A program made the translations under genes and the position numbers. Below the pieces are notes generated by a model. The model saw only the letters and a list, made by a program, of their open reading frames with translations, was not told the origin of the DNA and did no database searches. A stretch of DNA of 64,000 nt from Ramlibacter sp. (lineage in GTDB: Bacteria > Pseudomonadota > Gammaproteobacteria > Burkholderiales > Burkholderiaceae_C): NCBI RefSeq assembly GCF_035655895.1, contig NZ_DASRTN010000008.1, positions 333,536 through 397,535 of the forward strand, written 5' to 3'. Shown one piece after another: positions 11,257 to 29,964 of this stretch; position 1 is the first letter of the stretch; each line of letters opens with the position of its first letter.

Positions 11257-13449
11257 TCAGACGGGCGCCAGCGTCCCTGTCGTGCTTTTGACCAGTGCTT
11301 GCGAGATCGACGCCATCAGCGCGTCCGGCCCGATCGGCTTGGGAAGCACGGTGAAGCCCGCTTCGGTGGCCTGCGAGAGCCGATCCGTGTAGCCGGTCAT
11401 CAGCAGGATCGGGAGATCGCGCCGCTGCTGCGCGACACGCAAGGCCAGGTCCACGCCGGTCATCGGGCCTGCCAGGGAGATGTCGCTCAGGAGGATGTCG
11501 CAGGGACGGCCTTGCTGCAGGTGCTCCCACGCCGCCTCCGCGTGGTCGTAGCGCTGCACGCGCAGGCCAGCGTCGGCCAGCAGCACCGACAGCGACCGAG
11601 CGATCTCGTCGTTGTCCTCCACGAGGAGCAGGTCGCCTTGCAGCTTGAGTTCTGCCATCGGGGCACGCTCGGGTCTGCTCGCGCTGCGTGTTCCCGCCGG
11701 CAAGGTGAGGATCACCGTGGTTCCCTTCCCGGGCTCGGTGTCCAGGCGCAGCTCCCCGCCTGCCTGTTCGACGCAACTCTGAACCTGGCTCAACCCGAGC
11801 CCCGTGCCTTTCCCGACCGGCTTGGTGGTGAAGAATGGCTGGAGCACCTTGTCCACGAGCTCCGGAGGAATCCCGTGGCCGTGGTCCCGGACGCAGATGC
11901 GCACCCGCTCCTGGTGGCCAGGGGCACCTTCGGTGCACGGACTGGCGGCGATCGACATCCGGCCACCATCCGGCATCGCATCTCTCGCATTGATGCAGAG
12001 ATTGATCAGGGCCAGCTCCAGTTCGGCTTCGTCTGCGCGCACGGCCGGAAGGTCCGGCTCCAGGGAGACCTCGATCTCGTAGTTGCGCCCCAGGCTGCTT
12101 TTCAGGAGATCCGCGACTGCGGGGATGAGCCCCTGGAGCGAGACGTTGCTCACCTGCAGGGGCTGGCGCCGGGCGAACGCCAGGAGTTGCCGCGTGAGCT
12201 GGGCGCCCGTGGCGACCGCCCGCTGGATGGGAGCCAGTGCGGGTGTGGTGGGTTTGCCCCGCTGTTCCAGCTTCTGCGCCAGCACGGCGCTGTTTTGCAC
12301 CACCATCAGAAGGTTGTTGAAATCGTGCGCCACGCCGGCAGTGAGTCGACCGAGCGCCTCCATCTTCTGGGACTGTCGCAGGGCCCGCTCTGCCCGCAAG
12401 CGGTGTTCGTACTCCTGCGCATGGATCCTGGCCATCGCGTGTTCCCCCCGCACGCGCCGGATGGCGTACCAGCAGAGACCGGCCAGCAGGAGGGACAGCG
12501 GAATCGTGAAGGACGCCAGCAGCCATGTCGCGCGCCGCCAGGGTGCCAGCACCAGGTCACGGTCGGCGGTGGCGGCAACGTACAAGGGCAAGGCACCCAC
12601 CTTGCGGAACGCGACGAACCGGAACCGGTTGTCGATGGTGCTCACGCCGGCATGTTCTCCGCTCAGCAGGCCGGCGCGCATGTCTCGCAGCGTCGGGCTG
12701 GCAGGACCGAGGCGGGCACTCATCTCCACGTCGGGGTGGCGGGAGATGATGACGCCGTCGGAGCGCAGGAGGACCACGGAGAAGGCTTCGTCCTGCTGCA
12801 CCAGCTCCCTGAAGAGCTTGCCGAAGTAGCTGGGAAAGAGCGAGATGGACAGCACGCCTGCAAAGCGGCCGTCCGGTCGCGAGAGCCGCTTGGTGAAGTC
12901 GAAGAACGGCTCGCCCGTCAACTTGCTTCTCAGCGGCTCGCTGACGTACCAGTCGCGGCTGTCGGTGGTGGTGGCCCACTGGAAATACTCACGGTCCTGC
13001 ACGCTGAGGCTGGCCGGCGGATCCGGCCGGATGCTGCTGGCCACCGGATGGCCACTCTCATCCCAGATCCAGATCGACTGGAACTGCTGCAGGTCTCCGG
13101 CCAGTCCCCGCAGGGTGCCGTGCAGTTCGGCCCGGTGCTGCCGCAGCGTCGCGCTGGACCGGCCACCGACCACGCCGACGACCGCGCGCGACACGACCTC
13201 GTTGGTCTCGACGACGCGTGCCGACTGCTCCTGGGCGATCTGCGCTACCCGGGCCAGTCGCAGGCGGCTGTCGCGCACGGCAGCCTGGTAAGACGTTGCC
13301 GCGACGTAGGCCAGCAAGACCGTAGGCCCGACCAGGGACGCGAGGAGCGCCCATCGCAGCCACTTCGTTGCCGTCGAGGGAGCCTGCTGCACGGCAGGAG
13401 CAGGGGTACTCTGGTGCGCGGTGCCGTCTTCATCAACGGAGGATGTCAT
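11257..13449 (-). CDS. hybrid sensor histidine kinase/response regulator (periplasmic Cache-like sensor; start may be 13497)
   Basis: Two TM segments, H-box GVAHDFNNLL, NLCINARDAM, FFTTKPVGKGTGLGL, C-terminal REC domain (LLVED...LLSDI). Confidence 0.92.
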   Translation of the reverse strand: MTSSVDEDGTAHQSTPAPAVQQAPSTATKWLRWALLASLVGPTVLLAYVAATSYQAAVRDSRLRLARVAQIAQEQSARVVETNEVVSRAVVGVVGGRSSATLRQHRAELHGTLRGLAGDLQQFQSIWIWDESGHPVASSIRPDPPASLSVQDREYFQWATTTDSRDWYVSEPLRSKLTGEPFFDFTKRLSRPDGRFAGVLSISLFPSYFGKLFRELVQQDEAFSVVLLRSDGVIISRHPDVEMSARLGPASPTLRDMRAGLLSGEHAGVSTIDNRFRFVAFRKVGALPLYVAATADRDLVLAPWRRATWLLASFTIPLSLLLAGLCWYAIRRVRGEHAMARIHAQEYEHRLRAERALRQSQKMEALGRLTAGVAHDFNNLLMVVQNSAVLAQKLEQRGKPTTPALAPIQRAVATGAQLTRQLLAFARRQPLQVSNVSLQGLIPAVADLLKSSLGRNYEIEVSLEPDLPAVRADEAELELALINLCINARDAMPDGGRMSIAASPCTEGAPGHQERVRICVRDHGHGIPPELVDKVLQPFFTTKPVGKGTGLGLSQVQSCVEQAGGELRLDTEPGKGTTVILTLPAGTRSASRPERAPMAELKLQGDLLLVEDNDEIARSLSVLLADAGLRVQRYDHAEAAWEHLQQGRPCDILLSDISLAGPMTGVDLALRVAQQRRDLPILLMTGYTDRLSQATEAGFTVLPKPIGPDALMASISQALVKSTTGTLAPV

Positions 13450-13597
13450 GGCGGCTCGAAGGTAGGAGGGCCCTGATTCTGGCTCATCTGGCGTCATTCT
13501 TCACCGGCGGACCTGACGGCACACCGAACCCGCAACGACCACCTGTCTCGACCGCTTTGCCGCAGCTGGCAATCTCTCAACGGTCCCAGGTCAGGGC

Positions 13598-13825: not shown

Positions 13826-16024
13826 TCAGCTGGCAGTGGGTCGACGGTCCAGCAGCTGTTCGACCAGGAGCAGGAGCTCCGAAGGCTGTGCAGGCTTGGT
13901 GAGGTGCGCGGCAAAACCCGCTTGCGCAGCCTTTGCCTTGTCGACGGCGCGTCCGTAGCCTGAGAGAGCGACGAGGCTGCCGGACCAGTCGATGCCGTTT
14001 CCGCGCGCAGCCCTGGCCAGCTCGTAGCCGTCCATCCCCGGCATCCCGATGTCGAGGATGGCGATCTCCGGCTGGAACGTCTCCAGGAGCCGCAAAGCTT
14101 CCGAAGGGTCGGCCGTGATCGTCACGTCGTAGCCGGCGATCTGCAGGATGTCGCCCACGGTCTGCAGGGCGTCCAGATTGTCGTCGACCACGAGGATCCG
14201 GCCTGACTTGCGCGACGCCGCGGGCACCGGATTCGCAGGCGATGTTTGCGGAGCGTCGATGGTGGGCAGGGTGATGTTGAAAACGCTTCCCAGACCCAGC
14301 CCGTCGCTCGAGGCCGTGACCCGGCCGCCATGCAGTTCGACGACGCTGCGCACGATGGCAAGGCCCAGCCCGAGGCCGCCGTCCGACCGGGCAAGCGGCT
14401 GGGGCGATTGGTAGAACGGTTCGAACACGTGCGCCAGCATGTCCGCCGCGATACCGATGCCCCGATCGCGGACTTCGATCTGCACCTCGCGCGACGCCGG
14501 GGTCACGCGCAGGACCGTTGGCGCCTCGCCACCGAATCGCAGAGCGTTGGTCAGGAGGTTCGAGACTGCCTGGACCAGACGGGTCTCGTCGCCTTCCACC
14601 CAGACCGCAGCCGGGGGGAGCTCGACGCGCAGGTCTCGATTCCTGTCCTCGAACGCCGGCTGGAGGGCCTCCAGGCACCGTTCGATGACCGTGAACACGT
14701 TGACGGGGCCCCTGTCCATCTGCAGCTTGCCGCGGCTGATCCTGGAGATGTCGAGCAGGTCGTCCACCAGCCGCCGCAGGTGGTCGACCTGGCGGCGCAG
14801 CACCTTCCGCTCCCGTGCGGTTGTCGCGTCCGCCTTCAGATCCAGGAGGTGCAGGACGTTGACCATCGGGGAGAGAGGGTTGCGCAGTTCATGACCGAGC
14901 ACGGCAAGGAACTGGTCCTTGGCCTGGGCCGCTTCGTCGGCTCTGGCGAGCGCGTCGCGCATGGATGCACTGCTGTCGCTCAGGCGTTCGGACGCGGCGC
15001 GCAGTGCCTGGGAGAGCTCGTCGAGTTCGACGATCCGGCTGCGCGGCACGTGCGTGGACCTGCCGTCCCCGATCTGAACCGCCGCGTCGCGGATGCGGGA
15101 GATGGCGCGCGCGATTCCGGCGGACAACCGGTAGGCGAGCAAGGCGCAGATCAGGATGGAGCCGAGGACGCCGGCGAGGTACCAGGCCAGGCTGCGTGCC
15201 AGGGCGCGATGCGCTTCCTCGACCGGCGCTCCGACCACCACCGTCCAGCCATGAGGCTTGAGCCTGGTGAAGCTGGTGAGAAGTTGGTCTCCTTCCAGCG
15301 AGGAGGTCTTGCCTGTCCCGCCGTCTCCATTCGATTCGATCAGTCTGGCGACCGAGGGATGGGCGCTCCCGCCGAGCGTGCTGTTCTGATTCTTCGAACG
15401 TGCGACACGGCGCCCGGAACCGTCGAAGACAGAGACGACCCAGGAGCCGGGAACCTGCTGCTTGCGCACGACGTCGAGAATCCGGTCGGGCTTGACCGCT
15501 GCCGTCAGGACATAGGCCAGCTTCCCGTCGACCTCGACCGGCCATCGGACCGGGAACGCCGCCCCCTCGACCTGTCCCGGCAGGACGGCGCCAACCGCGG
15601 GGCGACGCGTGGACAGCACGGCTTCGAGGCTCCGTGGATCCACCACGCGTGCATCGGCCGCACCGAAGGGGAACGCGGTCTTGAACAGGACGCGGCCCTG
15701 CGCGTCGACGAGCACCACGCCAGACCATTCGGGCCGGGCCGCCACTTCGCCCTTCATCTGCTCATAGAAGGCGGGCAGGTCGCCTGCGAGGAGCCGTGGC
15801 GACCGCCCCGCGGTGGCGAGGCTGCGGAAGGTCCAATCGATCTCGGATTCGACGGCGGATGCCAGGGCCCGGGAAAGCTCGAACGTGGAGCGCTCCAGTT
15901 GCGCTTGCTGCCCTTGCACCGCCTCCCAGATGGCCCATGCCGCCATGAGCGACATCGGCACCAGGCCGAGCGCGGCGAGTCGAAGCAGCAGCTGGCGCAG
16001 GCTCTTGGGGGAAAGGGAAGGCAT
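13826..16024 (-). CDS. hybrid sensor histidine kinase/response regulator (periplasmic Cache-like sensor)
   Basis: Two TM segments, H-box LGHELRNPL, NLLTNA, DGGLGLGL, REC domain (ILVVDDN...ILDIGMPGMDG). Confidence 0.92.
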   Translation of the reverse strand: MPSLSPKSLRQLLLRLAALGLVPMSLMAAWAIWEAVQGQQAQLERSTFELSRALASAVESEIDWTFRSLATAGRSPRLLAGDLPAFYEQMKGEVAARPEWSGVVLVDAQGRVLFKTAFPFGAADARVVDPRSLEAVLSTRRPAVGAVLPGQVEGAAFPVRWPVEVDGKLAYVLTAAVKPDRILDVVRKQQVPGSWVVSVFDGSGRRVARSKNQNSTLGGSAHPSVARLIESNGDGGTGKTSSLEGDQLLTSFTRLKPHGWTVVVGAPVEEAHRALARSLAWYLAGVLGSILICALLAYRLSAGIARAISRIRDAAVQIGDGRSTHVPRSRIVELDELSQALRAASERLSDSSASMRDALARADEAAQAKDQFLAVLGHELRNPLSPMVNVLHLLDLKADATTARERKVLRRQVDHLRRLVDDLLDISRISRGKLQMDRGPVNVFTVIERCLEALQPAFEDRNRDLRVELPPAAVWVEGDETRLVQAVSNLLTNALRFGGEAPTVLRVTPASREVQIEVRDRGIGIAADMLAHVFEPFYQSPQPLARSDGGLGLGLAIVRSVVELHGGRVTASSDGLGLGSVFNITLPTIDAPQTSPANPVPAASRKSGRILVVDDNLDALQTVGDILQIAGYDVTITADPSEALRLLETFQPEIAILDIGMPGMDGYELARAARGNGIDWSGSLVALSGYGRAVDKAKAAQAGFAAHLTKPAQPSELLLLVEQLLDRRPTAS

Positions 16025-16149
16025 GAAGGAGCAGTCGGGCAAGCGAGTCTATCTCTCAGCCCCGACCTGGGTTCCATCAGTGGCGGCGCCCGGCTTCGGC
16101 ACCGATCGCCTGCGCTGGAGATGGCCGCGGGCGACAGGCCTGCCGTTGC

Positions 16150-17994
16150 CTAGGCGCTCGGGCGCATCGGGCTCAGCCAGGCGTCCGCCTCGCCGCCGGC
16201 CTGCACGCCGGGCTGGGCGGGCAGGCGGGCATCCAGGTAGCGCAGCAGCAGGGGCAGCACGATCTCCTGGTTGCCCGGACGCGAGAAGGTGTGGTCGGCG
16301 TCGGGCACGTAGGCCATGCGAAAGCGCGGTGCGCCCTGCAGGCGGCGGCCGTCGCGGCCGAAGTGGAACTCGACGTAGTCGCGGCCATCGTCGGCGTCGG
16401 CCACCAGCATCAGCACGTCGGTGCCGCGCGCGCACAGGCGCTGCATCTTCGCGAGCAATGGTTCCTCGGCGCGGCCGAAGGCCAGCCAGCGCCGCAGCCG
16501 GGCCGCGGCCAGCGCCAGGAAGCGGCGGGCGATCAGCCGCACGTTGACCTGGCCACGCAGCACCCGGCGCCACACCGCGGGCTTGAAGAGGGCACGGCGG
16601 TAGTGGTCGCTCGACTTCGCGTACTGCTGCATCGAATCCTGCCAGCGGTCGCCGGCCCGGCCGGGCGTCCATTCAAGCAGGCGTGAGTTCATCAGCACGA
16701 TGCCGCCGACCCGCTCGTCGACCAGCGCCGTCTGGAACGCCACGTACGAGCCCGAGCAGATGCCCATGAGCACGACGTCGCGGCAGCCGCGCTGCGCCAG
16801 CGCGTCGATCGCGGCGCGCACGTCCTGCGTCGACGTCTTGGCGTAGAGATCGGCCCACGGCCGCCCCGGCGCGGGCGGACTGTCGCCGATGCCGCCCAGG
16901 TCGAGCCGCAGCACCGGATAGCCGTTGTTGGCCAGCGAGCGGGCGATGCTGGTGTAGATGCGATGCGGTCCCACGCGGTGGTTGCCGCCCACGTTCAGCA
17001 GCAGCACGCCGGTCTGCCCGCGTCGGTCCTGCCCGGTGCCGCCCGCTGGTTCGGCCAGCACGCCGACCAGGGAGGCGCCGGGGCCCGCGCGCACCACGGT
17101 CTCGCGCACCGCGCCGGTGCTGCGCCACTGCAGCTGTTCGACAGGCGCGGGTGCCGGGTCCTGGCGCACGCCGGCGGCGGGCGACGCGGCCAACCAGCCG
17201 GCCACGGCCTGCAGCGTCGGCGCGTCCAGCACGCCGGCACGCGGCTCGTCGACCATCGCGGCGTAGCCGGGCAGCACGCGGTGCTCGACCTCGGCGCCCA
17301 GCGCGCGCAGCGCCTTGGGCAGCGGGCCCTCGCCCGGCAGGTCGTCGCGCCCGACCACCAGCACCCGCTGGGCGGGCCGGCACTGCGGGCGGGTCGCGTC
17401 CAGGGCGAGCAACTGTTCCACCGTCTCGGCGGCATGCGCATGGCCCATCGCGTGCAGCGTGCCGTCCGCCTCCTGCACGCCGGCGGCCCGCAGTTCGCGC
17501 ACGAAGGCCTTGCCGGTCGGGCAGGGCGCCCACAGCAGCAGGCTGTCGACACCGCCCAGGCGCGCGGCGGTCTCGACGGCGAGCGTCGCACCCAGGCGGA
17601 TCCCGAGCAGCGCGACCTGCCGCGCCTGCGATCGCGCGCGCACCTGCGCGACCGCCGCTTCGGCGCCGGCAAGCCAGGCCTCCACCCGGCCCGGGGGCAG
17701 CGCGTCGTCGCCCGCGTCCCCGGTGCCGGGGTAGTCGAAGCGCAGGACCGGGAATCCGGCCCGCGCCAGCGCGGTGGCCAGCTGCACCTGGGTCGGGTAG
17801 CTGCAGGTCGCCTCGTGGCCGACCGGGCTGCACAGCACGACGGCCAGGTCGCGCCAGGGCAAGGCCGGCGCGTGGTACCAGCCGAAGCACCAGCCACCGC
17901 CGACGTCGAAGGTCAGGCTCGCAGGGGGCGGCGCGGCAGCAGATGCCTCGGTGGAGTCGGCGGCGGGTGCGGCGGCAGCGGGAGACGGAGTCAT
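16150..17994 (-). CDS. tandem alpha/beta-hydrolase fusion (resembles exosortase-A-associated hydrolase 2 + hydrolase 1)
   Basis: Two repeated cores: VLRFDYPGTGD...GIRLGA and VLRLDLGGIGDS...GICSGS...DADHTFS; start overlaps the GH2 stop codon (ATGA). Confidence 0.8.
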   Translation of the reverse strand: MTPSPAAAAPAADSTEASAAAPPPASLTFDVGGGWCFGWYHAPALPWRDLAVVLCSPVGHEATCSYPTQVQLATALARAGFPVLRFDYPGTGDAGDDALPPGRVEAWLAGAEAAVAQVRARSQARQVALLGIRLGATLAVETAARLGGVDSLLLWAPCPTGKAFVRELRAAGVQEADGTLHAMGHAHAAETVEQLLALDATRPQCRPAQRVLVVGRDDLPGEGPLPKALRALGAEVEHRVLPGYAAMVDEPRAGVLDAPTLQAVAGWLAASPAAGVRQDPAPAPVEQLQWRSTGAVRETVVRAGPGASLVGVLAEPAGGTGQDRRGQTGVLLLNVGGNHRVGPHRIYTSIARSLANNGYPVLRLDLGGIGDSPPAPGRPWADLYAKTSTQDVRAAIDALAQRGCRDVVLMGICSGSYVAFQTALVDERVGGIVLMNSRLLEWTPGRAGDRWQDSMQQYAKSSDHYRRALFKPAVWRRVLRGQVNVRLIARRFLALAAARLRRWLAFGRAEEPLLAKMQRLCARGTDVLMLVADADDGRDYVEFHFGRDGRRLQGAPRFRMAYVPDADHTFSRPGNQEIVLPLLLRYLDARLPAQPGVQAGGEADAWLSPMRPSA

Positions 17995-20513
17995 GCGGGA
18001 GCGTCCACCGGCACGCCGGTGCTCAGGTTGAGGGCGTGAAGGCTGCCGGCCAGCGCCGCGCCCGGCTTGCTCCGGCGCAGGCGCAGCTCGCGGCTCTCGC
18101 CGGGCGCCAGATGGAAGTGGTCGTCGTCGGGCAGCCAGCCCGGCACATCGAGGTGGACGTCGATCGCCCATTGCCGGCAGGCGACGGCGAGCACGGCCTC
18201 GTCGTCGCCGTGCAGGGACAGCCGCGCGGTCAGGCCGATGTCCGCCGCGGGGCGTGCTGCCAGCAGCGGCGCGAGCCCGATCGGGAAGTGGAGGGCGCGG
18301 GCCAGCTCGCCGCCCTGGGCATCGAGCAGGCGCACCCGGACCAGCTCGCAGGCCGGCGGGCCGAACCGCCAGGCGTGGTTCAGGTCCAGGAAGTGCTCGA
18401 GCAGCTCCGCCAGCGCCACGCTGCAGCCCGTGCGCGGCGCGAGGTCGAGGGGGCGCCGGCCACTGGCGACCAGCACCTGGCCGTCACGCCACGCGCTCAG
18501 CTCCAGGCTGGCGGCATGGGCGTGCGGCGTCTCGTTGACGACGTGCGCCACCAGCCCGTCGCCGCCTTCGTCGGTGACCAGCACCGCGAGCGGCTGCAGC
18601 ACGCGCCGCAACGCCTGCCACGACGCCTTCGGCTGGCCCGTGTCGTCGAGCACACCCCAGCCGGCGCCGGCCCACAGGTCGCGCAGCAGGAGCAGCAGGG
18701 CGCCGTCGCAGGACGATCCCGGCCGCCGCCACTCGCTGTAGGCGGCCGCCATCACCTCGGCCGTCGCCAGCCGGCCGAACGCCAGGTAGCGGTCGTGGTC
18801 CGAGTGGCGCAGCCGGGCCGGATCGACGCCGAACAGTTCGCGCACGTAGTGGTCGCGCACGTCGTCGAAGTCCCAGCCGGCGCCCAGGTCGCGCGGCGAA
18901 CGCTGCTTCCAGGCCGGGTGGTGCACGCGGGTGGCCAGGCCCCCCGGCAGCCGTTCCAGCGCCGACGGCGAGGGGATGTTGGCGAAGGCCAGGCATTCCG
19001 TGGCGAAGCGCAGTCCGCTGCGCCGCGCGTCGTCGAGCCCGCGCTCGTAGGCCCCCACGCCGTAGTAGGAGGTCGTGCCGGCGCCGGCCTGGTGCGGGAA
19101 TGCGCCGCCGTGTGCGCTGGACGGCCAGTAGACGGCCTCCGGCGCGAGTTGCCCGCACAGCGCCGGCAGCACCTGATGGAAGAACGCCGGCTGCCAGGTG
19201 TCGCGCGGCGCTCCCCACATCGCCGCCTGCTGCTCGACCTCGCTGTTGCCGCACAGGACCGCCACGCTCGGATGCGGCGCCAGGCGCTGCAGCTGCTGGC
19301 GCGCCTCGGCCACCGCACCCGCGGCGAAGCCCTCCTCGCCGAACGGATAGTCCATGTTCGCGAACATGAAGTCCTGCCAGACGAGCAGCCCGAGCGCGTC
19401 GCAGGCCCGGTAGAAGTGGTCTTCCTCGTACACCAGCGTGCCGGCCAGGCGCAGCATGTTCATGCCGGCGTCGCGCACCTGGCGCAGGGCCGACTCGCAG
19501 GCCTGCGGCGTGGAGCGCAGGCTCACCACGTCCAGCGGCGTCCAGCCGGCGCCGCGGCAGAACACCGGCGCGCCGTTGACGCGCAACTGGAAGCCGCCGC
19601 GGCTGCGGTCCACCTCGATCCGGCGAAACCCGACCGACCCCAGCGGCAGCTCCTGCCGCGTGCCGTCGCGTGCGACGAGTCGCAGGCCCGCGCGGTACAG
19701 CGCCGCCTCGCCGTGCGTGTGCGGCCACCACAGGGCCGGTTGCGCGACCTCGACGATGGCCACCGCCTCGTGCGCCGTCGCGCCGCGCACGAGGGTTTGC
19801 GCATGGCAGCGGCCCTCGGGCGCGTGCAGCACCAGCTCCGCCGATTCGAGGTCGCGCGACCAGGAGGTCGGCGGTCGCAGCCGGAGTTCGCACCGCCCGC
19901 GTCCGTCCACCAGCGACGCGCGCAGCGAGGGCTGCAGGGCCGCCCCGTCGCTCCACCAGATCCCGCGCCAGGGGCCAACGGGTGCCGCCGGAGGCGACCA
20001 CCCAGGCGTGCGGCCCAGGAGTGTTGTGCGCTGCCAGCGCAGCTGCTGGTGCGCCACCATGGGGGTGCGCCAGCGAGGACGCGGCCGGCGGCGATCGAGC
20101 TCCGGCGCGAGGGCGGCAAACCGCAGCAGGAGCTCGTTGTCGCGTTCGTTCAGCAGGTCGGCGACCGCCGCCTCGTGGGCCACGAACATGTTGTCGGACC
20201 ACAGCAGCGGCCGCCCGTTCAACCAGACCTGGGCGCGCGTGGCCAGTCCGTCGAAGCCGAGCCGGGCGGCGGCGACGCCGGGCCGGTCGAACCGCGCGCG
20301 GAACCACCAGTCCTGGGCGTCGAAGTCGCGCGGCGGCGCGTCCAGCGACCACTGGCCGAGTTCACGCAGGGCGGCGGCCACGGTCTGGGCGCACGAACTC
20401 GCCTGCCATCCGTCCTGCGGCGCCGCCTCCGTGCCGCCGGGTTCGGCCCCGCAGAACTCCCAGCGCGCCGCGAGCGGCTGCCGCGCCGGGAGGGCGGGAT
20501 GCGCCTCGCCCAT
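17991..20513 (-). CDS. glycoside hydrolase family 2, beta-mannosidase-like
   Basis: FQLRVNGAPVFCRGAGW, GMNMLRLAG, GLLVWQDFMFA, HPSVAVLCGNSE (acid/base Glu), RFATE (nucleophile Glu); no signal peptide seen. Confidence 0.9.
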   Translation of the reverse strand: MGEAHPALPARQPLAARWEFCGAEPGGTEAAPQDGWQASSCAQTVAAALRELGQWSLDAPPRDFDAQDWWFRARFDRPGVAAARLGFDGLATRAQVWLNGRPLLWSDNMFVAHEAAVADLLNERDNELLLRFAALAPELDRRRPRPRWRTPMVAHQQLRWQRTTLLGRTPGWSPPAAPVGPWRGIWWSDGAALQPSLRASLVDGRGRCELRLRPPTSWSRDLESAELVLHAPEGRCHAQTLVRGATAHEAVAIVEVAQPALWWPHTHGEAALYRAGLRLVARDGTRQELPLGSVGFRRIEVDRSRGGFQLRVNGAPVFCRGAGWTPLDVVSLRSTPQACESALRQVRDAGMNMLRLAGTLVYEEDHFYRACDALGLLVWQDFMFANMDYPFGEEGFAAGAVAEARQQLQRLAPHPSVAVLCGNSEVEQQAAMWGAPRDTWQPAFFHQVLPALCGQLAPEAVYWPSSAHGGAFPHQAGAGTTSYYGVGAYERGLDDARRSGLRFATECLAFANIPSPSALERLPGGLATRVHHPAWKQRSPRDLGAGWDFDDVRDHYVRELFGVDPARLRHSDHDRYLAFGRLATAEVMAAAYSEWRRPGSSCDGALLLLLRDLWAGAGWGVLDDTGQPKASWQALRRVLQPLAVLVTDEGGDGLVAHVVNETPHAHAASLELSAWRDGQVLVASGRRPLDLAPRTGCSVALAELLEHFLDLNHAWRFGPPACELVRVRLLDAQGGELARALHFPIGLAPLLAARPAADIGLTARLSLHGDDEAVLAVACRQWAIDVHLDVPGWLPDDDHFHLAPGESRELRLRRSKPGAALAGSLHALNLSTGVPVDAPA

Positions 20514-20520
20514 CGGGATC

Positions 20521-20778
20521 TCAGCCGGCGATGAGTTCGCGCAGCGCCCGCTCGATCGACGCGATGCTGCGGAAGACGTTCCGCTTGAGCATGTGGTCGG
20601 GGAACTCGACTTCGAACTCGCCTTCCAGCGCCAGCATGACGTTCACGCTGGCGTGCGAGGTCATCCCGGACTGGTACAGATCGTCGTCGTTGGACAGCTT
20701 GTCGACGTCGACACCAAGGCGAGCATGGTCGCGCAGGATGCGGCGGATCGCGGTTTCAGCATGAAGCAGGGTCGTCAT
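20521..20778 (-). CDS. acyl/aminoacyl carrier protein
   Basis: 85 aa; DDDLYQSGMTSHASV with the phosphopantetheine Ser; LEGEFEVEFPD. Confidence 0.92.
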   Translation of the reverse strand: MTTLLHAETAIRRILRDHARLGVDVDKLSNDDDLYQSGMTSHASVNVMLALEGEFEVEFPDHMLKRNVFRSIASIERALRELIAG

Positions 20779-20793
20779 GCATGGGAATTTTGA

Positions 20794-21210
20794 TCAGCGC
20801 CCTAGCTCGTCCCTGTCGGACAGCGCCGCAACCACGGCCGCAGCGTAGTCGCCGTCATGGCTCAAACAGACTATGCAGCGCGCAATGCCTGCCGCGCGCG
20901 CCGCCTGCGCCGCGACACCATGCAGCACCAGCTCGCAGCTGCCGTCCGCGTGCCGTCGCACTTCCATCTCGCGCCAGTTCACGCCGGCCTCGCTCAGGCC
21001 CACTGCCTTGATGGTCGCTTCCTTCGCCGCGAAGCGGGCTGCCAGCCGTTGTGCGTGCTGGTCCGGTGCGCTGCGTGAATAGGCGATCTCGCCCGGCGCG
21101 AACAGCCTGCCTTCGAACCGCTCGCCGAACGCGCGCAGCGATTCGGCGATGCGCGGGATGTGCACGATGTCGATGCCGAGTCGGACGACGCCCGACAGGT
21201 CTGAAGGCAT
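20794..21210 (-). CDS. acpS: holo-[acyl-carrier-protein] synthase (AcpS-type PPTase)
   Basis: LGIDIVHIPRI, LAARFAAKEATIKA, CLSHDGDYAAAVV. Confidence 0.9.
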   Translation of the reverse strand: MPSDLSGVVRLGIDIVHIPRIAESLRAFGERFEGRLFAPGEIAYSRSAPDQHAQRLAARFAAKEATIKAVGLSEAGVNWREMEVRRHADGSCELVLHGVAAQAARAAGIARCIVCLSHDGDYAAAVVAALSDRDELGR

Positions 21211-21333
21211 TCCGCCCGTGAGAGATTCGATGAGTTGGTGGCTGTGCAAATTGCCCATTCGATCGCCCCACGAGCGTGCAACGCGGTGCTATTGTCCTTC
21301 GCACATTCTCATGCATGGGAGACCAAGGCAGTC

Positions 21334-22506
21334 ATGGAATCTCACTCTGCACCGGCGTTCGCCGAGCTCATCGAAGCTGTGCGCAAGGTGGCCACGGAAG
21401 TTGCATCGGCGCACGCCGCCGACGTCGACGCGAAGGCACGCTTTCCCATCGAGACGCTGGCCGCCTTGCGCGAGGTCGGCGTGCTCGCGGCGGCCGTCCC
21501 GCGAGCGCTCGGCGGCCCCGGCTGCAACGTGCAGGAGCTCGCGCAGATCTGTTCCACGCTGGCGCAGGCCTGTGGGTCCAGCGCGATGGTGCTGGCGATG
21601 CACTACATCCAGCTGGCCTGCCTGGCGCGCCACGGAATGCACAGCGCGTTCTTCCGCGGCTACCTGAAGGACCTGGTGCGCCGGCAGGACCTGCTGGCCT
21701 CGATGACGTCCGAGGTCGGCACGTTCGGCGACACGCGCTCGAGCATCTGCGCGGTGCGCCGCAGCGACGGCCGCTTCCAGCTCGACAAGGATGCGACCAC
21801 CGGCTCCTACTGCGCCCACGCCGACGCCATCCTCGTGACCTGCCGGCGCGACGAGGACGCGGCCCGCAGCGACCAGGTGCTGGTGCTCGTGCGGCGCGAG
21901 GACTGCACCCTCACCCAGACCACCAGCTGGGACACGATGGGCATGCGCGGCACCTGCAGCCCCGGCTTCAAGCTGGCCTCCAGCGGACGCGAGGAGCAGA
22001 TCCTCCCTGGTGCCTTCGCGGACAGCTCGGCCCAGACCATGGTGCCGTACTCGCACATCCTGTGGGCCTCGCTGTGGTGGGGCATCGCCGCGGGCGCCGT
22101 GGCCCGCGCCGCCAGCTTCGTGCGCGGCCAGGCCCGCCAGACACCCGGCAGCGTGCCGCCCACCGCCGCGCGCCTGGCGCAACTTCAGGTGCAGTTGCAG
22201 GCGGCCAGGCAGAACTGGCTCGGTGCCGCGCGCGATTTCGACGCGGTGGCGGAGGACCGCGACGAGCTGATGGGCATGGGCTGGGCCCTGCGACTGAACA
22301 ACCTGAAGATCGCCGCGTCGGAGGCCACGCCCCAGATCGTGCACGGCGCGCTGCAGATCGTCGGCATCCTGGGCTACAAGAACGACAGCCCGTTCAGCCT
22401 GGGCCGCCATTACCGCGACGCCCTGTCGGGCTCGCTGATGATTTCCAACGAGCGCATCGCCGCCAAGAACGCATCGATGCTGCTGGTCTACAAGGACGCC
22501 GCCTGA
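21334..22506 (+). CDS. acyl-CoA dehydrogenase family protein (probably acts on carrier-bound substrate)
   Basis: AADVDAKARFPIETL, SMTSE, WDTMGMRGTCS, ALQIVGILGY; coupled to the ligase gene by TGATG overlap. Confidence 0.88.
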   Translation: MESHSAPAFAELIEAVRKVATEVASAHAADVDAKARFPIETLAALREVGVLAAAVPRALGGPGCNVQELAQICSTLAQACGSSAMVLAMHYIQLACLARHGMHSAFFRGYLKDLVRRQDLLASMTSEVGTFGDTRSSICAVRRSDGRFQLDKDATTGSYCAHADAILVTCRRDEDAARSDQVLVLVRREDCTLTQTTSWDTMGMRGTCSPGFKLASSGREEQILPGAFADSSAQTMVPYSHILWASLWWGIAAGAVARAASFVRGQARQTPGSVPPTAARLAQLQVQLQAARQNWLGAARDFDAVAEDRDELMGMGWALRLNNLKIAASEATPQIVHGALQIVGILGYKNDSPFSLGRHYRDALSGSLMISNERIAAKNASMLLVYKDAA

Positions 22507-23420
22507 TGGACACCCGCACCTACGACATCGACAGTTTCTCCGCGAGCCTGGTCGAGCACGGCCTGATCGTGCCCACCGGCATCCGCGGTGCCTACGGGCG
22601 GGGCCCGGCCTTCGAGGACATCCTGCGCCGCTTCGACGACCTGGTCACGCGCACCGCGGCCCCGGACGGCGCCCGCGAGCTGATGTTCCCGCCGATCCTG
22701 GCCCGCGCCATGATCGAGAAGGTCGGCTACATGGACAACTTCCCGCAGCTCGCGGGCTCCATCCACAGCTTCACGGGCACCGACGCGCAGGCCCGCGAGC
22801 TCTCGGCCAGGGTGCACGCCGGCGAGCGCTGGGAGGACATGCTCGCGCCCACCGACGTGATGCTCACGCCGGCGGCGTGCTATCCGGTGTATCCGACCTT
22901 CAGCGGCACCCTGCCGGAGGGCGGGCGGCTGGTCACGGTGATGAACTGGGTGTTCCGCCACGAGCCGTCGGACGAACCGACCCGGCTGCAGCACTTCCGC
23001 ATGCGCGAGTACATCCGGGTCGGCCGCCCCGACGACGTGGTGGCCTGGCGCGACGCCTGGCTGCAGCGTGGCCTGCGGCTGCTCGAGGGCCTGGGCCTGC
23101 CGGTGCAGAGCGACGTGGCGTCCGATCCGTTCTTCGGGCGCGCCGGCAAGATGATGGCCGCCAACCAGGTCGACCAGCGCCTGAAGTTCGAGATCCTGTG
23201 CCCGGTGATCTCGCGCGAGAAACCCACCGCGATCTGTTCGTTCAACTGGCACCAGGACCACTTCAGCTCCAAGTTCGGCATCCGCAACGCCGACCAGACG
23301 GCGGCGCACACTGCCTGCCTGGGCTTCGGGCTGGAGCGGGTGACGCTGGCCCTGATCAAGGCGCACGGCTTCGATCCGGCTGACTGGCCGCAGAAGGTGC
23401 GCGCCCAGCTGTGGCCCTGA
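22506..23420 (+). CDS. amino acid:[carrier protein] ligase (class II aaRS / atypical SerRS homologue lacking the tRNA-binding domain)
   Basis: 304 aa; class II motif 2 FRHEPSDEPTRLQHFRMREY and motif 3 HTACLGFGLER; candidate Zn ligands in PAACY, MREY and HTAC. Confidence 0.9.
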   Translation: MDTRTYDIDSFSASLVEHGLIVPTGIRGAYGRGPAFEDILRRFDDLVTRTAAPDGARELMFPPILARAMIEKVGYMDNFPQLAGSIHSFTGTDAQARELSARVHAGERWEDMLAPTDVMLTPAACYPVYPTFSGTLPEGGRLVTVMNWVFRHEPSDEPTRLQHFRMREYIRVGRPDDVVAWRDAWLQRGLRLLEGLGLPVQSDVASDPFFGRAGKMMAANQVDQRLKFEILCPVISREKPTAICSFNWHQDHFSSKFGIRNADQTAAHTACLGFGLERVTLALIKAHGFDPADWPQKVRAQLWP

Positions 23421-23445: not shown

Positions 23446-24438
23446 ATGAGCACCATCGCCGTCCTGCCCGGGCTGACCCCCGAGAGCTACCGCCGGCACC
23501 CGCTGCACGGCGACAGCGCCGCGTGGCCCGAGAAGAACTGCTACGCCGACCTCTGGATCGGCTTCCTGCACACGCTCGGCCTGGAGCCGCTCGCGATGCT
23601 GGCGTTCACGGTGGCCGTCGATTTCGAGGGCGACCAGTGGACGTTCTTCAAGCCGCCGCTGGACGAACTGCGCGCGCTGTTCGGCGTCGACGTGCAGGAG
23701 CTCACCGTCTGGCGGCCGCTGGTCGAGCACGCGAAGGAACACCTCGCGGCCGGCAAGTTGATCAGCACCGAGTCCGACGCGTTCTGGCTTCCCGACACGG
23801 CGGGCACCGACTACCGGCGCAGCCACACCAAGACAACCATCCTCCTGGCCGACCTCGACCTGCAGCGCGAGCGCCTGGGCTACTTCCACAACGCCGGGTA
23901 CTACGAGCTGGCAGGGGAGGACTTCCGCCAGCTGTTCCGGCTCGATGCCGGCCCGGACCCGGCCTTCCTGCCGCTGTTCGCGGAGGTGGTGCGCATCGAC
24001 CGCATCGTGCGCCGGTCGTCGTCGGACCTGTCGGACATCTCGTTCGAGCTGCTGCGCAAGCACTTCGCCTGGCGGCCGCGCAGCAATCCGTTCTCGCGCT
24101 TCGCCGCCCGGATGCTGCAGGACCTGCCGGCACTGCAGGAGCGGGGACTCGCGCACTACCACCAGTGGGCGTTCGCCTCCATCCGCCAGGCCGGCGCCGC
24201 CTTCGAGCTGCTGGCGGCCCATCTGCGGTGGCTCGCCACCCAGGGCTATCCGGAGGTGGGCGAGTCGGCCCAGCGCTTCGAGGCGATCGGCCAGGCGAAC
24301 AAGACACTGATCCTCAAGGGCGCCCGGGCGGTGAACTCGGGCAGGGCTCTGAACGCCGACGACCTGCTGCAGGCCATGGCGGCCGACTGGGAGCGCGGCA
24401 TGGCACTGCTCGGTCCGCTGCTGGCCGAGCCGTGCTGA
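23446..24438 (+). CDS. DUF1839-like protein
   Basis: EKNCYADLW, DFEGDQWTFFKP, DAFWLPDTAGTDY, LGYFHNAGYY; I recall this family as the usual neighbour of aa:CP ligases. Confidence 0.75.
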   Translation: MSTIAVLPGLTPESYRRHPLHGDSAAWPEKNCYADLWIGFLHTLGLEPLAMLAFTVAVDFEGDQWTFFKPPLDELRALFGVDVQELTVWRPLVEHAKEHLAAGKLISTESDAFWLPDTAGTDYRRSHTKTTILLADLDLQRERLGYFHNAGYYELAGEDFRQLFRLDAGPDPAFLPLFAEVVRIDRIVRRSSSDLSDISFELLRKHFAWRPRSNPFSRFAARMLQDLPALQERGLAHYHQWAFASIRQAGAAFELLAAHLRWLATQGYPEVGESAQRFEAIGQANKTLILKGARAVNSGRALNADDLLQAMAADWERGMALLGPLLAEPC

Positions 24439-24459: not shown

Positions 24460-26145
24460 TCAGAACGACCAGCCGGCCTGCAGCAGCAGGCGGCCGCGCG
24501 AGGCCTCTTCGCTGCGCGCCTCCTGGCCCTGCAGCCGGTAGGCCCACCAGGCCTTGACGGTCAGCCCCTGCGGGTGCGCGGCCGACCAGCCGAGGCCGAC
24601 GTCGCTCAACGTGCGCGACGGATCGGACTTCACCGCGCGGGCGGTGGCGACATTGGTGAACGCCAGCCATTGCTGCTGGAAGCCGCCCACGACCGGCAGT
24701 GGCCGGCCCAGCTCCAGCCGCAGCGCCGTGGCATCGCTGCCACTGAGTTCGCCGGGCGGATAGGCCATCACGCCACCGGCACCCGCCACCGACAGGCGCT
24801 CGCTGGAATCGAGGTTCTTGCCGCCCAGTGCGGTCTGGTGGCGCAGGCCCGCCGTCAGCGTGAACTGGTGCGGCAGCATGGTCAGCCGCGACAGCGACAG
24901 GTTCAGCTTGCTGAAACGGCCATCGGTGTCGGGCCCGCCGGCGGCCTGGTCGAACTGCAGGGCGGTCTCGCTGCGGATGTCCAGCACACCTGCGGTCAGC
25001 GTGGCGCTGGCCTGCGTGAGGCCTTCGCGGCCCAGCAGCTTGCGGTCGTCACGCAGGCCCAGCGTGGCGCTCAGCGCGTCGGAGCGCTTGGGCGTCACGG
25101 TCGACGTGCTGCGGATCTCGTCGCGCAGGTCCTTGTGCGACAGGGCCAGGCCGGCCTCCACGGTCTGCGCCTCGGTGCGCTTGACGGGGTAGCTCAGGGC
25201 CAGGTCCACCGCGTCGGCACGCCCCACCACGCCTAGCGGCGCGAACACGCCGGCCAGCTCGTAGGTCGTGCGCGACACGGCGGCCTCGCCGCGCAGGCCG
25301 TTCGGTGCCAGGCTCGCCGAGTAGGCCAGGCGGCCGTTCAGCAGGTCGCCCGACCGGGTGGCGAGACCCGAAGCCGACAGCCGGTCGCCGCGTCCGCTGG
25401 GGGAGTTCCAGTCCCAGCGCGCGCTCAGGCGCTCGCGGCCGGTGTAGCGCGAGCCGTGGTTGTCGACCAGCACGTAGCCGGTGTGGCGGCGGGTGGCGGC
25501 CGTCTCCACGGCGAAGTCCGAGGTGCCGACTGCCTGGCCTGGCATCACGTCGGCGCGGACGACGCGCACCCCGGGCGTGTCGTTGATGATGAGCATGGCG
25601 CGCTCGAGCGTGTCGGTCGAGACGATGTCGAACTTCTTCACGTCGTCGAGCATCGCCTGCACGATGTCGTCCGCCACCAGCGAGCCGTTCTTCAGGACGA
25701 AGCGGCCGTAGTTGCCTTCGACCGCGCGCAGCGTCACCACGCCGTCCTTGATCTCCTGCTGCGGCACGTAGACGCGTGCGACGAAGTAGCCGCGTGCGCG
25801 GTAGAAGCGGGTCAGGCGCGTGGCGACCTCCTCGATCTGCGCCAGCGTCAGCGGCTTGCCGGCGGCGCCGGCAATCTCCGCCTGCAGGCTGGCAGTGTCG
25901 ATCTCGCGGTTGCCCACGAGCTCGAAGCGCTGGACGGCGATCTCGCGGCCGCCGCGCGGCAGGGCCGCCATCGGCGGCTCGGTCGGCTTGCCGCCCAGCG
26001 CGGGCAGCGGTGCGGCGGGGCGGCTGGGCAGCGGCTGCGGCAGCTGCTGCAGCACGGTGCCGGCGTCGGGCACGGCCTGCGCGTGCGCCAGCTGGAAGGC
26101 CGACAGCACGGCCAGCGAGAGGGTGGTTCTTCGGACGAGGGACAT
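24460..26145 (-). CDS. two-partner secretion transporter TpsB (ShlB/FhaC/HecB family)
   Basis: Signal peptide (AHA-QAVPDAG), POTRA region (YRARGYFVARVYVPQQ), DNHGSRYTGRERL, C-terminal barrel strand LLLQAGWSF. Confidence 0.92.
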   Translation of the reverse strand: MSLVRRTTLSLAVLSAFQLAHAQAVPDAGTVLQQLPQPLPSRPAAPLPALGGKPTEPPMAALPRGGREIAVQRFELVGNREIDTASLQAEIAGAAGKPLTLAQIEEVATRLTRFYRARGYFVARVYVPQQEIKDGVVTLRAVEGNYGRFVLKNGSLVADDIVQAMLDDVKKFDIVSTDTLERAMLIINDTPGVRVVRADVMPGQAVGTSDFAVETAATRRHTGYVLVDNHGSRYTGRERLSARWDWNSPSGRGDRLSASGLATRSGDLLNGRLAYSASLAPNGLRGEAAVSRTTYELAGVFAPLGVVGRADAVDLALSYPVKRTEAQTVEAGLALSHKDLRDEIRSTSTVTPKRSDALSATLGLRDDRKLLGREGLTQASATLTAGVLDIRSETALQFDQAAGGPDTDGRFSKLNLSLSRLTMLPHQFTLTAGLRHQTALGGKNLDSSERLSVAGAGGVMAYPPGELSGSDATALRLELGRPLPVVGGFQQQWLAFTNVATARAVKSDPSRTLSDVGLGWSAAHPQGLTVKAWWAYRLQGQEARSEEASRGRLLLQAGWSF

Positions 26146-26180
26146 GGGGATTCGGAAAGGTTCGGGACTGCCGGGGCGCA

Positions 26181-29100: not shown

Positions 29101-29786
29101 AGGCTCACCTTGTCGCCGGCGGCCAGCACGGCGGCGCCCAGGCGGGCGGTGATCACGCCTTCGTTCACCACCTGGCTGCCCAGCAGCGCGACGTGGCCGG
29201 CATCGGCGGCGCGCAGCTGGCCCAGGTTGATCACGCCGGCCCGGCTGCCGTTGGCGCTGAACTGGCTGCGGCCGGCCATGAAGTCGGCGTCGCTGATGTC
29301 GAGGGTGCTGGCCACCAGGCCGGCGGCGTCGACCTGCGCCGTGCGGCCGAACAGGATGCCATTGGCGTTGAGCAGCCAGACCTGGCCGTTGGCACGCAGC
29401 GCGCCGTCGATCACGGAGCGCTCGGTGCCGACCACCCGGTTGAGGATGACCGCGGCGGCGTCGGGCTGGGCGAAGGTCACCGAGGCGCCGCTGCCGATGC
29501 TGAAAGACTGCCAGTTGATGGCGGCGCGCTGCGAGCCCTGGGTGACCGTCAGGGCGTTGCCCTGGGCCTGGATGCTGGCCTGGCCGGCGGTGACCGTGCC
29601 GCCGGTGGGCAGCACGCCCGGTGCCTGCTGGGCGGCCGCGGCGATCGCCGTCAGCGCGAAGGCCGCCACGGCGGCCCGGGCGGCGGTGGTGGCGCTGCTG
29701 GACCTGCCGCGGCCGGGAGCGGCTTCGGAGACGGCGACGTGTGCACCCAGGCGGGCGTTCCAGAGGGTCTTGTGGATGCGGTTCAT
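26181..29786 (-). CDS. TpsA filamentous haemagglutinin-family exoprotein/adhesin
   Basis: Extended signal peptide MNRIHKTLWNARLGAHVAVSE; secretion domain (INWQSFSIG, ILNRVVG, ANGQVWLLNANG); GGFVETSA, QWLIDPEDF; Pro- and Ser-rich C-terminal linkers. Confidence 0.92.
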   Translation of the reverse strand: MNRIHKTLWNARLGAHVAVSEAAPGRGRSSSATTAARAAVAAFALTAIAAAAQQAPGVLPTGGTVTAGQASIQAQGNALTVTQGSQRAAINWQSFSIGSGASVTFAQPDAAAVILNRVVGTERSVIDGALRANGQVWLLNANGILFGRTAQVDAAGLVASTLDISDADFMAGRSQFSANGSRAGVINLGQLRAADAGHVALLGSQVVNEGVITARLGAAVLAAGDKVSLNFNGSSLVGVTVDRGVLDAMVANKQAILADGGLVVLTARGLDDVMSTVVNNTGEIRAQTVADKEGRIYLLGGLQSDAIQVGGRLDASAPQGGHGGFVETSAARVGIAADATVTTRAAAGTHGQWLIDPEDFVIGAGGDISGAALGAALANGNVTIETAVGGASCTGVAGCGAGTAGNGDILVRESIAKTAGGDTSLTLKAHNSIVLDAGVSIGSTAGKLDVLLSANNGGGNAASITLAADAAVATNGGNLVLGGALAAGVPSNDRLVDITLGTGVALAANGGRVDLFGKDVDVGANTHVDAARITADVANLSFGNNPGIQWTATDAVAVRATGQVNLSGAYRPPAGSAYITPASQTSVNAGNTMTIEAADSLNINSAAIRLTNAAGPNALTLRAGDAVTVEDSSVAFAGRADLRILVKQNATQSDLANVDPATTTVAAYRDAHQASLYDVAQAADGLNVDGSHFGLAGGGYKLQVYSDTALTQVTTNTIDNGLLAIGNGLTDSVNAAGNLRQPFYFDPTLAQWMKLTYWNYDMDMAVGVGGSSTSGWNNAGTVLSTDRGNTSLAPAISGLSVDASGLGNGVGVVRVAYDVTAPVTGETLRMTHDYSLAAGDRFVKAVTRTINTGAAAADNVRMWVGTRDDYVAISDANVKTKGNITANGFEAITTASQQARSIIISEFNPSTAGTPGSAVLFHSTNIDADTVTDRCCSFGNVVNKDPRVSQVVTPVQDGSYGIFMNYGSMAAGATRQVTWYYGAAPLSAIGTLVDQVVAGGGTEIVAPTVVTVPGTPPAPVVVAQPPVPVPVPVSPVIENVVAQTITVSLPAALPAAPEPVRTAGPVPGQVVSLPHGAPQLPGAAGDLLVTPTLDGDTPNTAVSLSQAREMLGAGQEGAGASPSSTSSSPASASTGSATSSASSGTASQGSASEGTVAGSDRMPGASAEVRVPASRNSRVHIVNGGVRLPGGVEQQLFVIRK

Positions 29787-29964
29787 GGCAAGGCGATGGC
29801 GGGCGCAGGCGCCCGGAGAGGAGAAGCACCAAGTGTCACGAGATGCAACTCATCCGGATGCCAGGAAAAGCTGGCGCGCCCTCGGGCATTTCCTCCTCAA
29901 GTTCCGGCCGGTGCTGCCGGGGGCTGGAGGCGCGTCGCGACGCCGCGACGGCCGTCGCGAACGG

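Follow-up and report, generated by a model that had tools for sequence, protein, structure and literature searches.

A tandem alpha/beta-hydrolase with arginine and cysteine elbows, encoded with an amino acid:carrier-protein ligase in Ramlibacter, is a candidate carrier-protein-unloading enzyme

Amino acid:carrier-protein ligases (aa:CP ligases) are homologues of aminoacyl-tRNA synthetases that charge carrier proteins, and the fate of the amino acid is still called unknown (PMC9437257). The published work on the Bradyrhizobium and Agrobacterium systems (Mocibob et al. 2010, 2013) concerns the ligase and its acyl carrier protein (ACP), with the biological role stated to be unknown (PMC9437257). 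The gene neighbourhood described in 2010 held an ACP, a redox enzyme, a conserved open reading frame (ORF), a glycosidase and 'other' polysaccharide genes, and no tandem hydrolase was named there (PMC2922099). In this study, we analysed a gene for a tandem alpha/beta-hydrolase that lies in one cluster with such a ligase, in a 64,000-nucleotide stretch of DNA from Ramlibacter sp. (NCBI RefSeq assembly GCF_035655895.1, contig NZ_DASRTN010000008.1, positions 333,536 to 397,535), hereafter named the window. With moderate confidence, we propose that this enzyme would unload the ACP of the cluster as a transacylase or thioesterase, by way of an acyl thioester on its Cys413, and that its other domain, with an Arg at the nucleophile position, would serve as a dock for the carrier protein.

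The nearest families by sequence are hydrolase 1 (hydr1, TIGR03100) and hydrolase 2 (hydr2, TIGR03101) of exosortase-A loci. Literature searches for TIGR03100, TIGR03101 or 'exosortase A-associated hydrolase' yielded nothing beyond an annotation table and a paper on an N-acyl synthase that is unrelated.

Parallels of function are offered by CmaE, SyrC, LgnA and CouN7, which share the alpha/beta-hydrolase fold; CmaE and SyrC use an active-site Cys. All four are characterised carrier-protein-dependent transferases, among which CmaE and SyrC are aminoacyl shuttles, passing the aminoacyl group from a phosphopantetheine thioester to the active-site residue and onward, while CouN7 brings an acyl group from an ACP to a sugar (PMC8748450). 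Enzymes of the CmaE/SyrC type are single-domain proteins of nonribosomal peptide synthetase (NRPS) pathways and have no Arg pseudo-domain; the tandem hydrolase is likened to them by its proposed function.

The gene and its two domains are the following, in window coordinates:

16150..17994, minus strand: tandem alpha/beta-hydrolase gene (P0003), 614 aa (translation; Pfam Hydrolase_4)
17170..17925, minus strand: N-domain, a hydr2-like pseudo-nucleophile domain, about residues 24-275 (TIGR03101, 65 bits)
16225..17109, minus strand: C-domain, a hydr1-like Cys-His-Asp domain, about residues 296-590 (TIGR03100, 122 bits)

A preliminary description of the window, made from the letters alone, had taken this gene for a fused double alpha/beta-hydrolase, whose N-domain carries an Arg in the elbow GIRLGA and no catalytic His, and whose C-domain carries GICSGS and DADHTF with the Cys at a nucleophile elbow. 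All of this is borne out. Judged by BLASTP, the two halves are paralogous alpha/beta-hydrolase domains (34% identity over 123 aa, E 3e-9), with R133 of GIRLGA (codon 17596-17598) opposite C413 of GICSGS (codon 16756-16758). In HMMER alignments both residues fall on the Ser nucleophile of solved serine hydrolases, C413 on that of 9pjb and 8b4u, and the DHTFS of the C-domain, which includes H568 of the DADHTF motif (codon 16291-16293), aligns with GDHTFS of 9pjb. Two domains are also seen in an AlphaFold2 model computed from 30 homologues (mean predicted local distance difference test, pLDDT, 85; predicted template modelling score, pTM, 0.86). In this model R133 stands between strand 126-132 and helix 134-145, and C413 between strand 406-412 and helix 414-425, each at a modelled nucleophile elbow. 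D535 (codon 16390-16392) follows the seventh strand of the C-domain (526-532) and H568 the eighth (558-563), which are the canonical acid and His positions, and a helical cap occupies about residues 450-522. The equivalent positions of the N-domain are taken by D217/D218, on the acid loop, and by Y244, in place of the catalytic His; this domain also has a helix with R166-E167 (codons 17494-17499). The N-terminus of the protein is Ala/Pro-rich and disordered, with neither a signal peptide nor a secretion signal to be seen in it.

Pfam recognises generic alpha/beta-hydrolase families only (Hydrolase_4, PF12146, 59 bits against a cut-off of 27), and every Foldseek match was an alpha/beta hydrolase. 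The closest solved chains by sequence are the S33/Hydrolase_4 esterases 9pjb, 8b4u and 9pir (E 2e-10 to 3e-9), with which the elbows align. These are single-domain Ser hydrolases of the same fold, unlike the tandem Arg/Cys form. Sequence searches of the PDB and Foldseek searches returned generic single-domain alpha/beta hydrolases and no solved tandem Arg/Cys structure. Soluble epoxide hydrolase was considered as a two-domain match and rejected, its root-mean-square deviation being ~20 A.

About 400 full-length homologues of the tandem hydrolase were found, the closest from Ramlibacter and other Comamonadaceae. In public records they are called just 'alpha/beta fold hydrolase' or the like, and neither Pfam nor NCBIfam has a model of its own for them. 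Among 30 close homologues, G131/R133/G135, G411/C413/G415, D535 and D567-H568 are all invariant. An exhaustive profile-free search gave 1,971 cluster representatives at E<=1e-30, and among the best 150 the majority have a length of about 600 aa and span both domains. We aligned 141 fused proteins, each representing one 50%-identity cluster and sharing 33-53% identity with the query. The Cys413 was present in 141/141, as were G131 and G135 around the Arg; His568 was found in 139/141 and Asp or Glu at position 535 in 137/141. Arg133 was kept in 129/141, the others having His (7), Gly (3) or Gln (2), and position 244 was Tyr or Phe in 130/141. The near-invariant polar residues of the N-domain are E61, R85, D87, R133, R166, E167 and R216, with R166 conserved at 99% and E167 at 91%. 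The mean frequency of the top residue was 0.52 in the Arg domain versus 0.47 in the Cys domain. By this measure the Arg domain is conserved no less than the Cys domain, and therefore is no decaying remnant; to judge from these alignments, both domains are under strong purifying selection.

We compared each half with the exosortase-A families. The top NCBIfam match of residues 1-290 is TIGR03101 (hydr2_PEP), at 65 bits for a cut-off of 202.75 and over profile positions 10-143 only, and that of residues 290-614 is TIGR03100 (hydr1_PEP), at 122.2 bits for a cut-off of 168.45 (157.3 bits with the whole protein). Matches of the halves to the opposite family are weaker, at 38 and 33 bits. The family that the preliminary description had expected for each half is thus the best match, but both scores lie below the curated cut-offs, and the halves are therefore relatives of TIGR03101 and TIGR03100 rather than members.

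True hydr1 proteins were read for comparison. TIGR03100 was above its cut-off in 55/301 sampled Burkholderiales genomes (a tally that takes in one unpublished genome, G294, on which no other claim rests), and the true members in this sample scored 187-373 bits. The elbow G-L-C-D-(A/G) and the motif (D/N)HTF occurred in 30/30 of the true hydr1 proteins read. The ORF upstream of true hydr1 had, in 20/20 alignable loci, the elbow G/A-x-R-x-G and GxPFWxTQE at the position of the His loop, without a His. Scores of 291-355 bits with TIGR03101 were obtained for three of these upstream ORFs and for the N-halves of two fused forms. It was correct, then, to assign the Arg elbow to hydr2 and the Cys elbow to hydr1, as had been done beforehand, and also to expect an ACP and an acyl ligase in such loci: the gene order is ACP-hydr2-hydr1 in a complete genome (G170), and in 3/4 genomes checked a TIGR03098 acyl-CoA ligase is found no more than about 5 kb from hydr1/hydr2. 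In true hydr2 proteins a conserved FLRL(K/R) helix occupies the place of R166-E167. By structure, an Atlas search matched the whole two-domain model with a 593-aa cluster named 'hydrolase 1, exosortase A' (TM score ~0.8), and residues 16-275 with an 'Exosortase A-associated hydrolase 2' cluster (TM 0.81). Natural hydr2::hydr1 fusions of about 610-626 aa, with both halves above the cut-offs, were also seen in one genus (L018:1495-3372 in G037 and L023:517-2346 in G092). Fusion in that order is therefore not unique to the tandem-hydrolase family.

The tandem hydrolase thus shares with the exosortase-A pair its domain order, its Arg and Cys elbows, the (D/N)HTFS motif and a hydr2 half without His. 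The loci are alike too, with an ACP directly upstream (ACP-GH2-hydrolase in the window, ACP-hydrolase in related loci that lack the GH2-like gene) and an adenylating ligase near. On the other hand, the Cys elbow is GICSGS and not GLCDAAS, the loader is a ligase like class II aminoacyl-tRNA synthetases and not an ANL-type acyl-CoA ligase, and the partners are a flavoenzyme of the acyl-CoA-dehydrogenase (ACAD) fold, a DUF1839 protein and a GH2-like protein, in a genome without exosortase A. The preliminary description had noted no exosortase in the window; none was detected in the whole genome, which is 99.9% complete (best TIGR03109 match 17 bits, cut-off 208), and no true members of TIGR03100 or TIGR03101 were found there. 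The actual partner system is the cluster of aa:CP ligase, ACP and flavoenzyme, not an exosortase system. The kinship with hydr1/hydr2, the fusion and the two elbow types extend an already known kind, one described by bioinformatics only; the strict link to aa:CP ligases, the cassette with two alternative sets of partners described below, and the predicted docking of ACP on the Arg domain appear to be new in the searchable literature.

The other members of the cluster in the window are:

17991..20513, minus strand: GH2-like glycosidase gene, directly upstream of the hydrolase (Pfam Glyco_hydro_2_N2, 66 bits); optional cluster member
20521..20778, minus strand: dedicated ACP (NF005480/PRK07081, 105 bits, cut-off 72), with Ser41 as phosphopantetheine site by alignment
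20794..21210, minus strand: AcpS-type phosphopantetheinyl transferase (PPTase; TIGR00556, 85 bits, cut-off 45)
21235..22506, plus strand: ACAD-fold flavoenzyme, in a divergent operon (Pfam Acyl-CoA_dh_N/_1/_2)
22503..23420, plus strand: amino acid--[acyl-carrier-protein] ligase, SerRS-like, the aa:CP ligase (NF005479/PRK07080, 412 bits, cut-off 357)
23446..24438, plus strand: DUF1839 protein, papain-like Cys fold (PF08893, 356 bits); optional cluster member

The ligase, present as a single copy in the genome, belongs to the family of the Bradyrhizobium and Agrobacterium enzymes (NF005479), and the dedicated ACP family is likewise shared with those systems. DUF1839 has been put among the papain-like folds (PMC10318531). 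In the window, whose G+C content is ~72%, the ATG of the tandem hydrolase overlaps the stop of the GH2-like gene (840 aa) by 4 bases (ATGA), and with such an overlap the two genes are probably translationally coupled. The best NCBIfam matches of the ACAD-fold protein (21235-22506, plus strand) were flavin enzymes of the Rv1679/FadE16, SfnB, DszC and HsaA types, all far below their cut-offs, and this protein may be of the oxygenase rather than the dehydrogenase type.

Conservation of the arrangement was judged in 30 related loci from species-representative genomes, where the contig was long enough. The order PPTase-ACP-(GH2)-hydrolase, divergent from ACAD-ligase-(DUF1839), was kept throughout, with one exception (L069). 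This exceptional locus, from Ramlibacter sp. MMS24-I3-19, is a second tandem-hydrolase paralogue (43% identity) with no cluster genes around it. In the same genome the copy in the cluster (L052) has an annotated length of just 404 aa (P0080), yet its tblastn match spans residues 24-587; the gene may contain a frameshift or have a miscalled start. Most of the related loci whose flanks are long enough have both the GH2-like and the DUF1839 gene, and 6 have neither (L049, L054, L055, L056, L059 and L061, for instance L059:1-7131), which come from Ramlibacter-like metagenome-assembled genomes. In 6/6 of these loci a polyketide synthase (PKS) module with ketosynthase and acyltransferase domains (KS-AT) adjoins the ligase region. 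A protein with formyltransferase, adenylation (with a luciferase-like insert) and peptidyl carrier protein (PCP) parts is found in most of the six, one locus being cut short, and those that reach far enough have GH5 and GH8 genes after the tandem hydrolase. The constant part is thus a cassette, PPTase-ACP-hydrolase and, divergently, ACAD-ligase. The hydrolase is retained in the six loci without a GH2-like gene, and therefore it belongs to the cassette and not to the glycosidase.

We then examined whether hydrolase and ligase go together on a wider scale, in a phylum sample of 401 genomes, scoring being confined to the top candidates of each genome. The ligase was above cut-off in 24/401 genomes and the tandem hydrolase (E<=1e-40) in 16/401. 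All of the 16 hydrolase-positive genomes were also ligase-positive, and the hydrolase was found in 0/377 ligase-negative genomes; the 16 span 11 genera and are not 16 independent events. In 11/15 genomes other than that of the window, representing 6 GTDB families, ligase and hydrolase were 2-22 kb apart on one contig. The tandem hydrolase is a frequent, not universal, partner of the aa:CP ligase, and the core of the aa:CP operon recurs in distant genomes of the phylum. Seven distant loci have the order ACP-ACAD-ligase-DUF1839-GH2-...-hydrolase, with a hydrolase ~30% identical to the query. The distant and fused representatives lie on short contigs, which give little gene context.

Complex prediction was run for the hydrolase and the ACP of the cluster, each entered as an alignment, along with three controls. 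The pair scored 0.76 and the best control 0.01. A score of 0.76 is reached by 58/80 solved complexes and by 2/110 mismatched pairs, a calibration that is rough here, as self-made alignments were used. At least 87% of the contacts were common to the runs, and the pLDDT of the partner was at least 85. All confident contacts were made by the N-domain (residues 60-61, 166-167, 169-173, 182-183, 218-220 and 248). The predicted contact loops ring its pseudo-active site and include R166-E167, and Ser41 of the ACP touches residues 171-172 and 182-183. The model supports a binding of the ACP to the active-site face of the Arg domain. If this pose is right, the Arg domain would be a receptor for the carrier protein, which would explain why hydr2 always accompanies hydr1.

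The following course of events can be proposed. The aa:CP ligase would charge the phosphopantetheine arm of the dedicated ACP with an amino acid, bound there as a thioester and perhaps altered in place by the ACAD-fold flavoenzyme. The loaded ACP would then dock on the active-site face of the Arg133 domain, which would act as a receptor rather than a catalyst, and transthioesterification would move the acyl group onto Cys413 of the Cys-His-Asp domain. The acyl-S-enzyme would then hand the group on to an acceptor. A sugar or glycan precursor is the most likely one, through a hydroxyl or amino group, the alternatives being another carrier protein or water. A Cys nucleophile retains the energy of the thioester, and transfer would therefore be favoured over hydrolysis. 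The hydr1/hydr2 loci, in which ACP-hydr2-hydr1 occurs with an adenylating ligase, follow the same logic.

The fusions and neighbours of the tandem module in other genomes point to a sugar or glycan as acceptor. The module forms the C-terminal part of a 1,103-aa protein (L075:12386-15694, in G541 and relatives), in which a Wzx-like Polysacc_synt_3 membrane domain makes up the N-terminal 500 residues and whose gene is flanked by GT4 glycosyltransferases. In P0249 the module is followed by a CE4 polysaccharide deacetylase at the C-terminus, in P0199 it is preceded by an N-terminal GNAT domain, Acetyltransf_6, and in P0139 it is duplicated. Its neighbours include flippase, CE4 deacetylase, sugar-transfer ATP-grasp and GH5 genes. 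The 2010 study had predicted that the aa:CP system attaches the amino acid to a cell-surface sugar, and these fusions and neighbours fit that prediction (PMC2922099). The decoration of polysaccharide supposed in the preliminary description gains indirect backing in this way, but to judge from the cluster variant with NRPS/PKS genes, the group may have destinations other than a sugar.

Several points weigh against the proposed unloading through Cys413 with docking on the Arg domain. The same NRPS/PKS variant argues against a sugar as universal acceptor, and 8/23 other ligase-positive genomes are without a tandem hydrolase. Complexes of ACP or PCP with alpha/beta hydrolases have been solved already, and the complex score may partly reflect likeness to them. 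The residues of the interface are weakly more conserved than the rest of the N-domain, which is not significant (permutation p ~0.08). The geometry of the model is also demanding: if the ~20 A phosphopantetheine arm cannot reach Cys413, either the Arg domain must have a chemistry of its own or the predicted docking must be wrong. The DUF1839 protein, a second Cys enzyme of the cluster, is also a candidate for the unloading transferase (PMC2922099). Finally, the searchable literature contains no biochemical data on the tandem hydrolase, TIGR03100 or TIGR03101.

Other functions were therefore weighed against the same evidence. The one that survives best, although we consider it rather unlikely, is a purely hydrolytic thioesterase, which would free the (modified) amino acid from the ACP, or edit mis-loaded ACP in the manner of type II thioesterases, without transfer to an acceptor. 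The fold with its complete triad and the tight linkage to a free-standing ACP and a ligase agree with it; DUF1839 could then be the actual transferase (PMC2922099), and the NRPS/PKS variant, a setting in which trans-acting thioesterases are frequent, retains the hydrolase. However, editing and releasing enzymes normally use a Ser (LgnA, with GHSxG; PMC8748450), whereas the 141 fused representatives have Cys without exception. Nor is it a trait of thioesterases to have an obligatory second domain of high conservation, type II enzymes being single-domain GxSxG proteins, and the flippase, CE4 deacetylase and GNAT fusions suggest a glycan substrate.

The coupling to the GH2-like gene would suit an ACP-independent esterase or deacylase of glycans or small molecules, a Cys-type enzyme like dienelactone hydrolase working with the glycosidase. 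The Cys-His-Asp family DLH (PF01738) scores 27.9 bits for a cut-off of 21, but its best stretch, over the elbow region, covers no more than profile positions 30-125 of 217. In other genomes the hydrolase gene lies near GH5, GH8 and CE4 genes. We nevertheless judge such a function improbable: in the six loci without a GH2-like gene, ACP, PPTase, ACAD and ligase still accompany the hydrolase, co-occurrence at the level of genomes is with the ligase, the complex model supports binding of ACP, and the protein has no visible signal for secretion.

A non-hydrolytic catalysis by the Arg domain itself, for instance carboxylate or enolate binding through Arg133, D217 and Y244, with a separate role for the Cys domain, would agree with the model in so far as Ser41 of the ACP is set over the pocket of the Arg domain and not over the Cys domain, and with the many near-invariant polar residues of the N-domain. 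Against it, 12/141 representatives have R133 swapped for His, Gly or Gln, and to our knowledge there is no precedent for a catalytic Arg at the nucleophile position of an alpha/beta-hydrolase fold. We regard this catalysis as slightly less probable than the esterase.

Least probable of all is a condensing or polymerising enzyme of the PhaC kind, in which the Cys domain would hold a growing chain and add one hydroxyacyl or aminoacyl unit after another from the ACP thioester while the second domain replaces the partner of the synthase dimer: the GxCxG lipase box, the Cys-His-Asp triad, the alpha/beta fold, the thioester substrates, a faint class III PhaC match over residues 396-452 (E 0.36) and a tandem architecture resembling a pseudo-dimer recall PhaC, but TIGR01836 gives 9.8 bits for a cut-off of 365.3, no PhaC is among the structural matches listed, and no phasin-like or polymer-related genes were seen nearby.

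Unloading of the ACP through Cys413 thus remains our preferred reading, and the tandem hydrolase, with its invariant Cys, is a concrete candidate for the step that follows aa:CP loading. The Arg domain, 'dead' as a hydrolase, gains a testable role in docking of ACP, and the reasoning extends to the uncharacterised hydrolases 1 and 2 of exosortase-A loci. More tentatively, hydr2 and hydr1 together might be a general ACP-unloading module that operates behind unrelated loaders, an ANL ligase in exosortase-A exopolysaccharide loci and a tRNA-synthetase-like ligase in the Ramlibacter cluster, with the Arg pseudo-enzyme as carrier receptor and the acyl group delivered to surface glycans or to an NRPS/PKS line. 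If true, one unloading module would be reused behind two unrelated loading enzymes, and the aa:CP-ligase pathway, for which no role has been known since 2010, would gain its missing next step.

Some observations concern the borders of the cluster and the origin of the DNA. Downstream of the hydrolase, two hybrid histidine kinases (11257-13497 and 13826-16042) were weighed as possible members of the cluster and left out of it: the related loci lack them, the sole hybrid-kinase match there having 25% identity and lying several kb off, in L043. At the other side, a TpsB-type transporter gene (24460-26150, minus strand), FhaC/ShlB-like by eye, with a signal peptide followed by POTRA/beta-barrel-like sequence, ends 22 bases from the end of the DUF1839 gene and marks the right border of the cluster. 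It comes after a gene for a two-partner secretion (TPS) exoprotein with ESPR (26181-29849, minus strand), in a different frame. A single public sequencing run contains this DNA (window 16150-21300), and no RNA run was listed with it. The run bears the label 'algae metagenome' and probably represents the source sample, so that the DNA may come from an alga-associated Ramlibacter-like bacterium.

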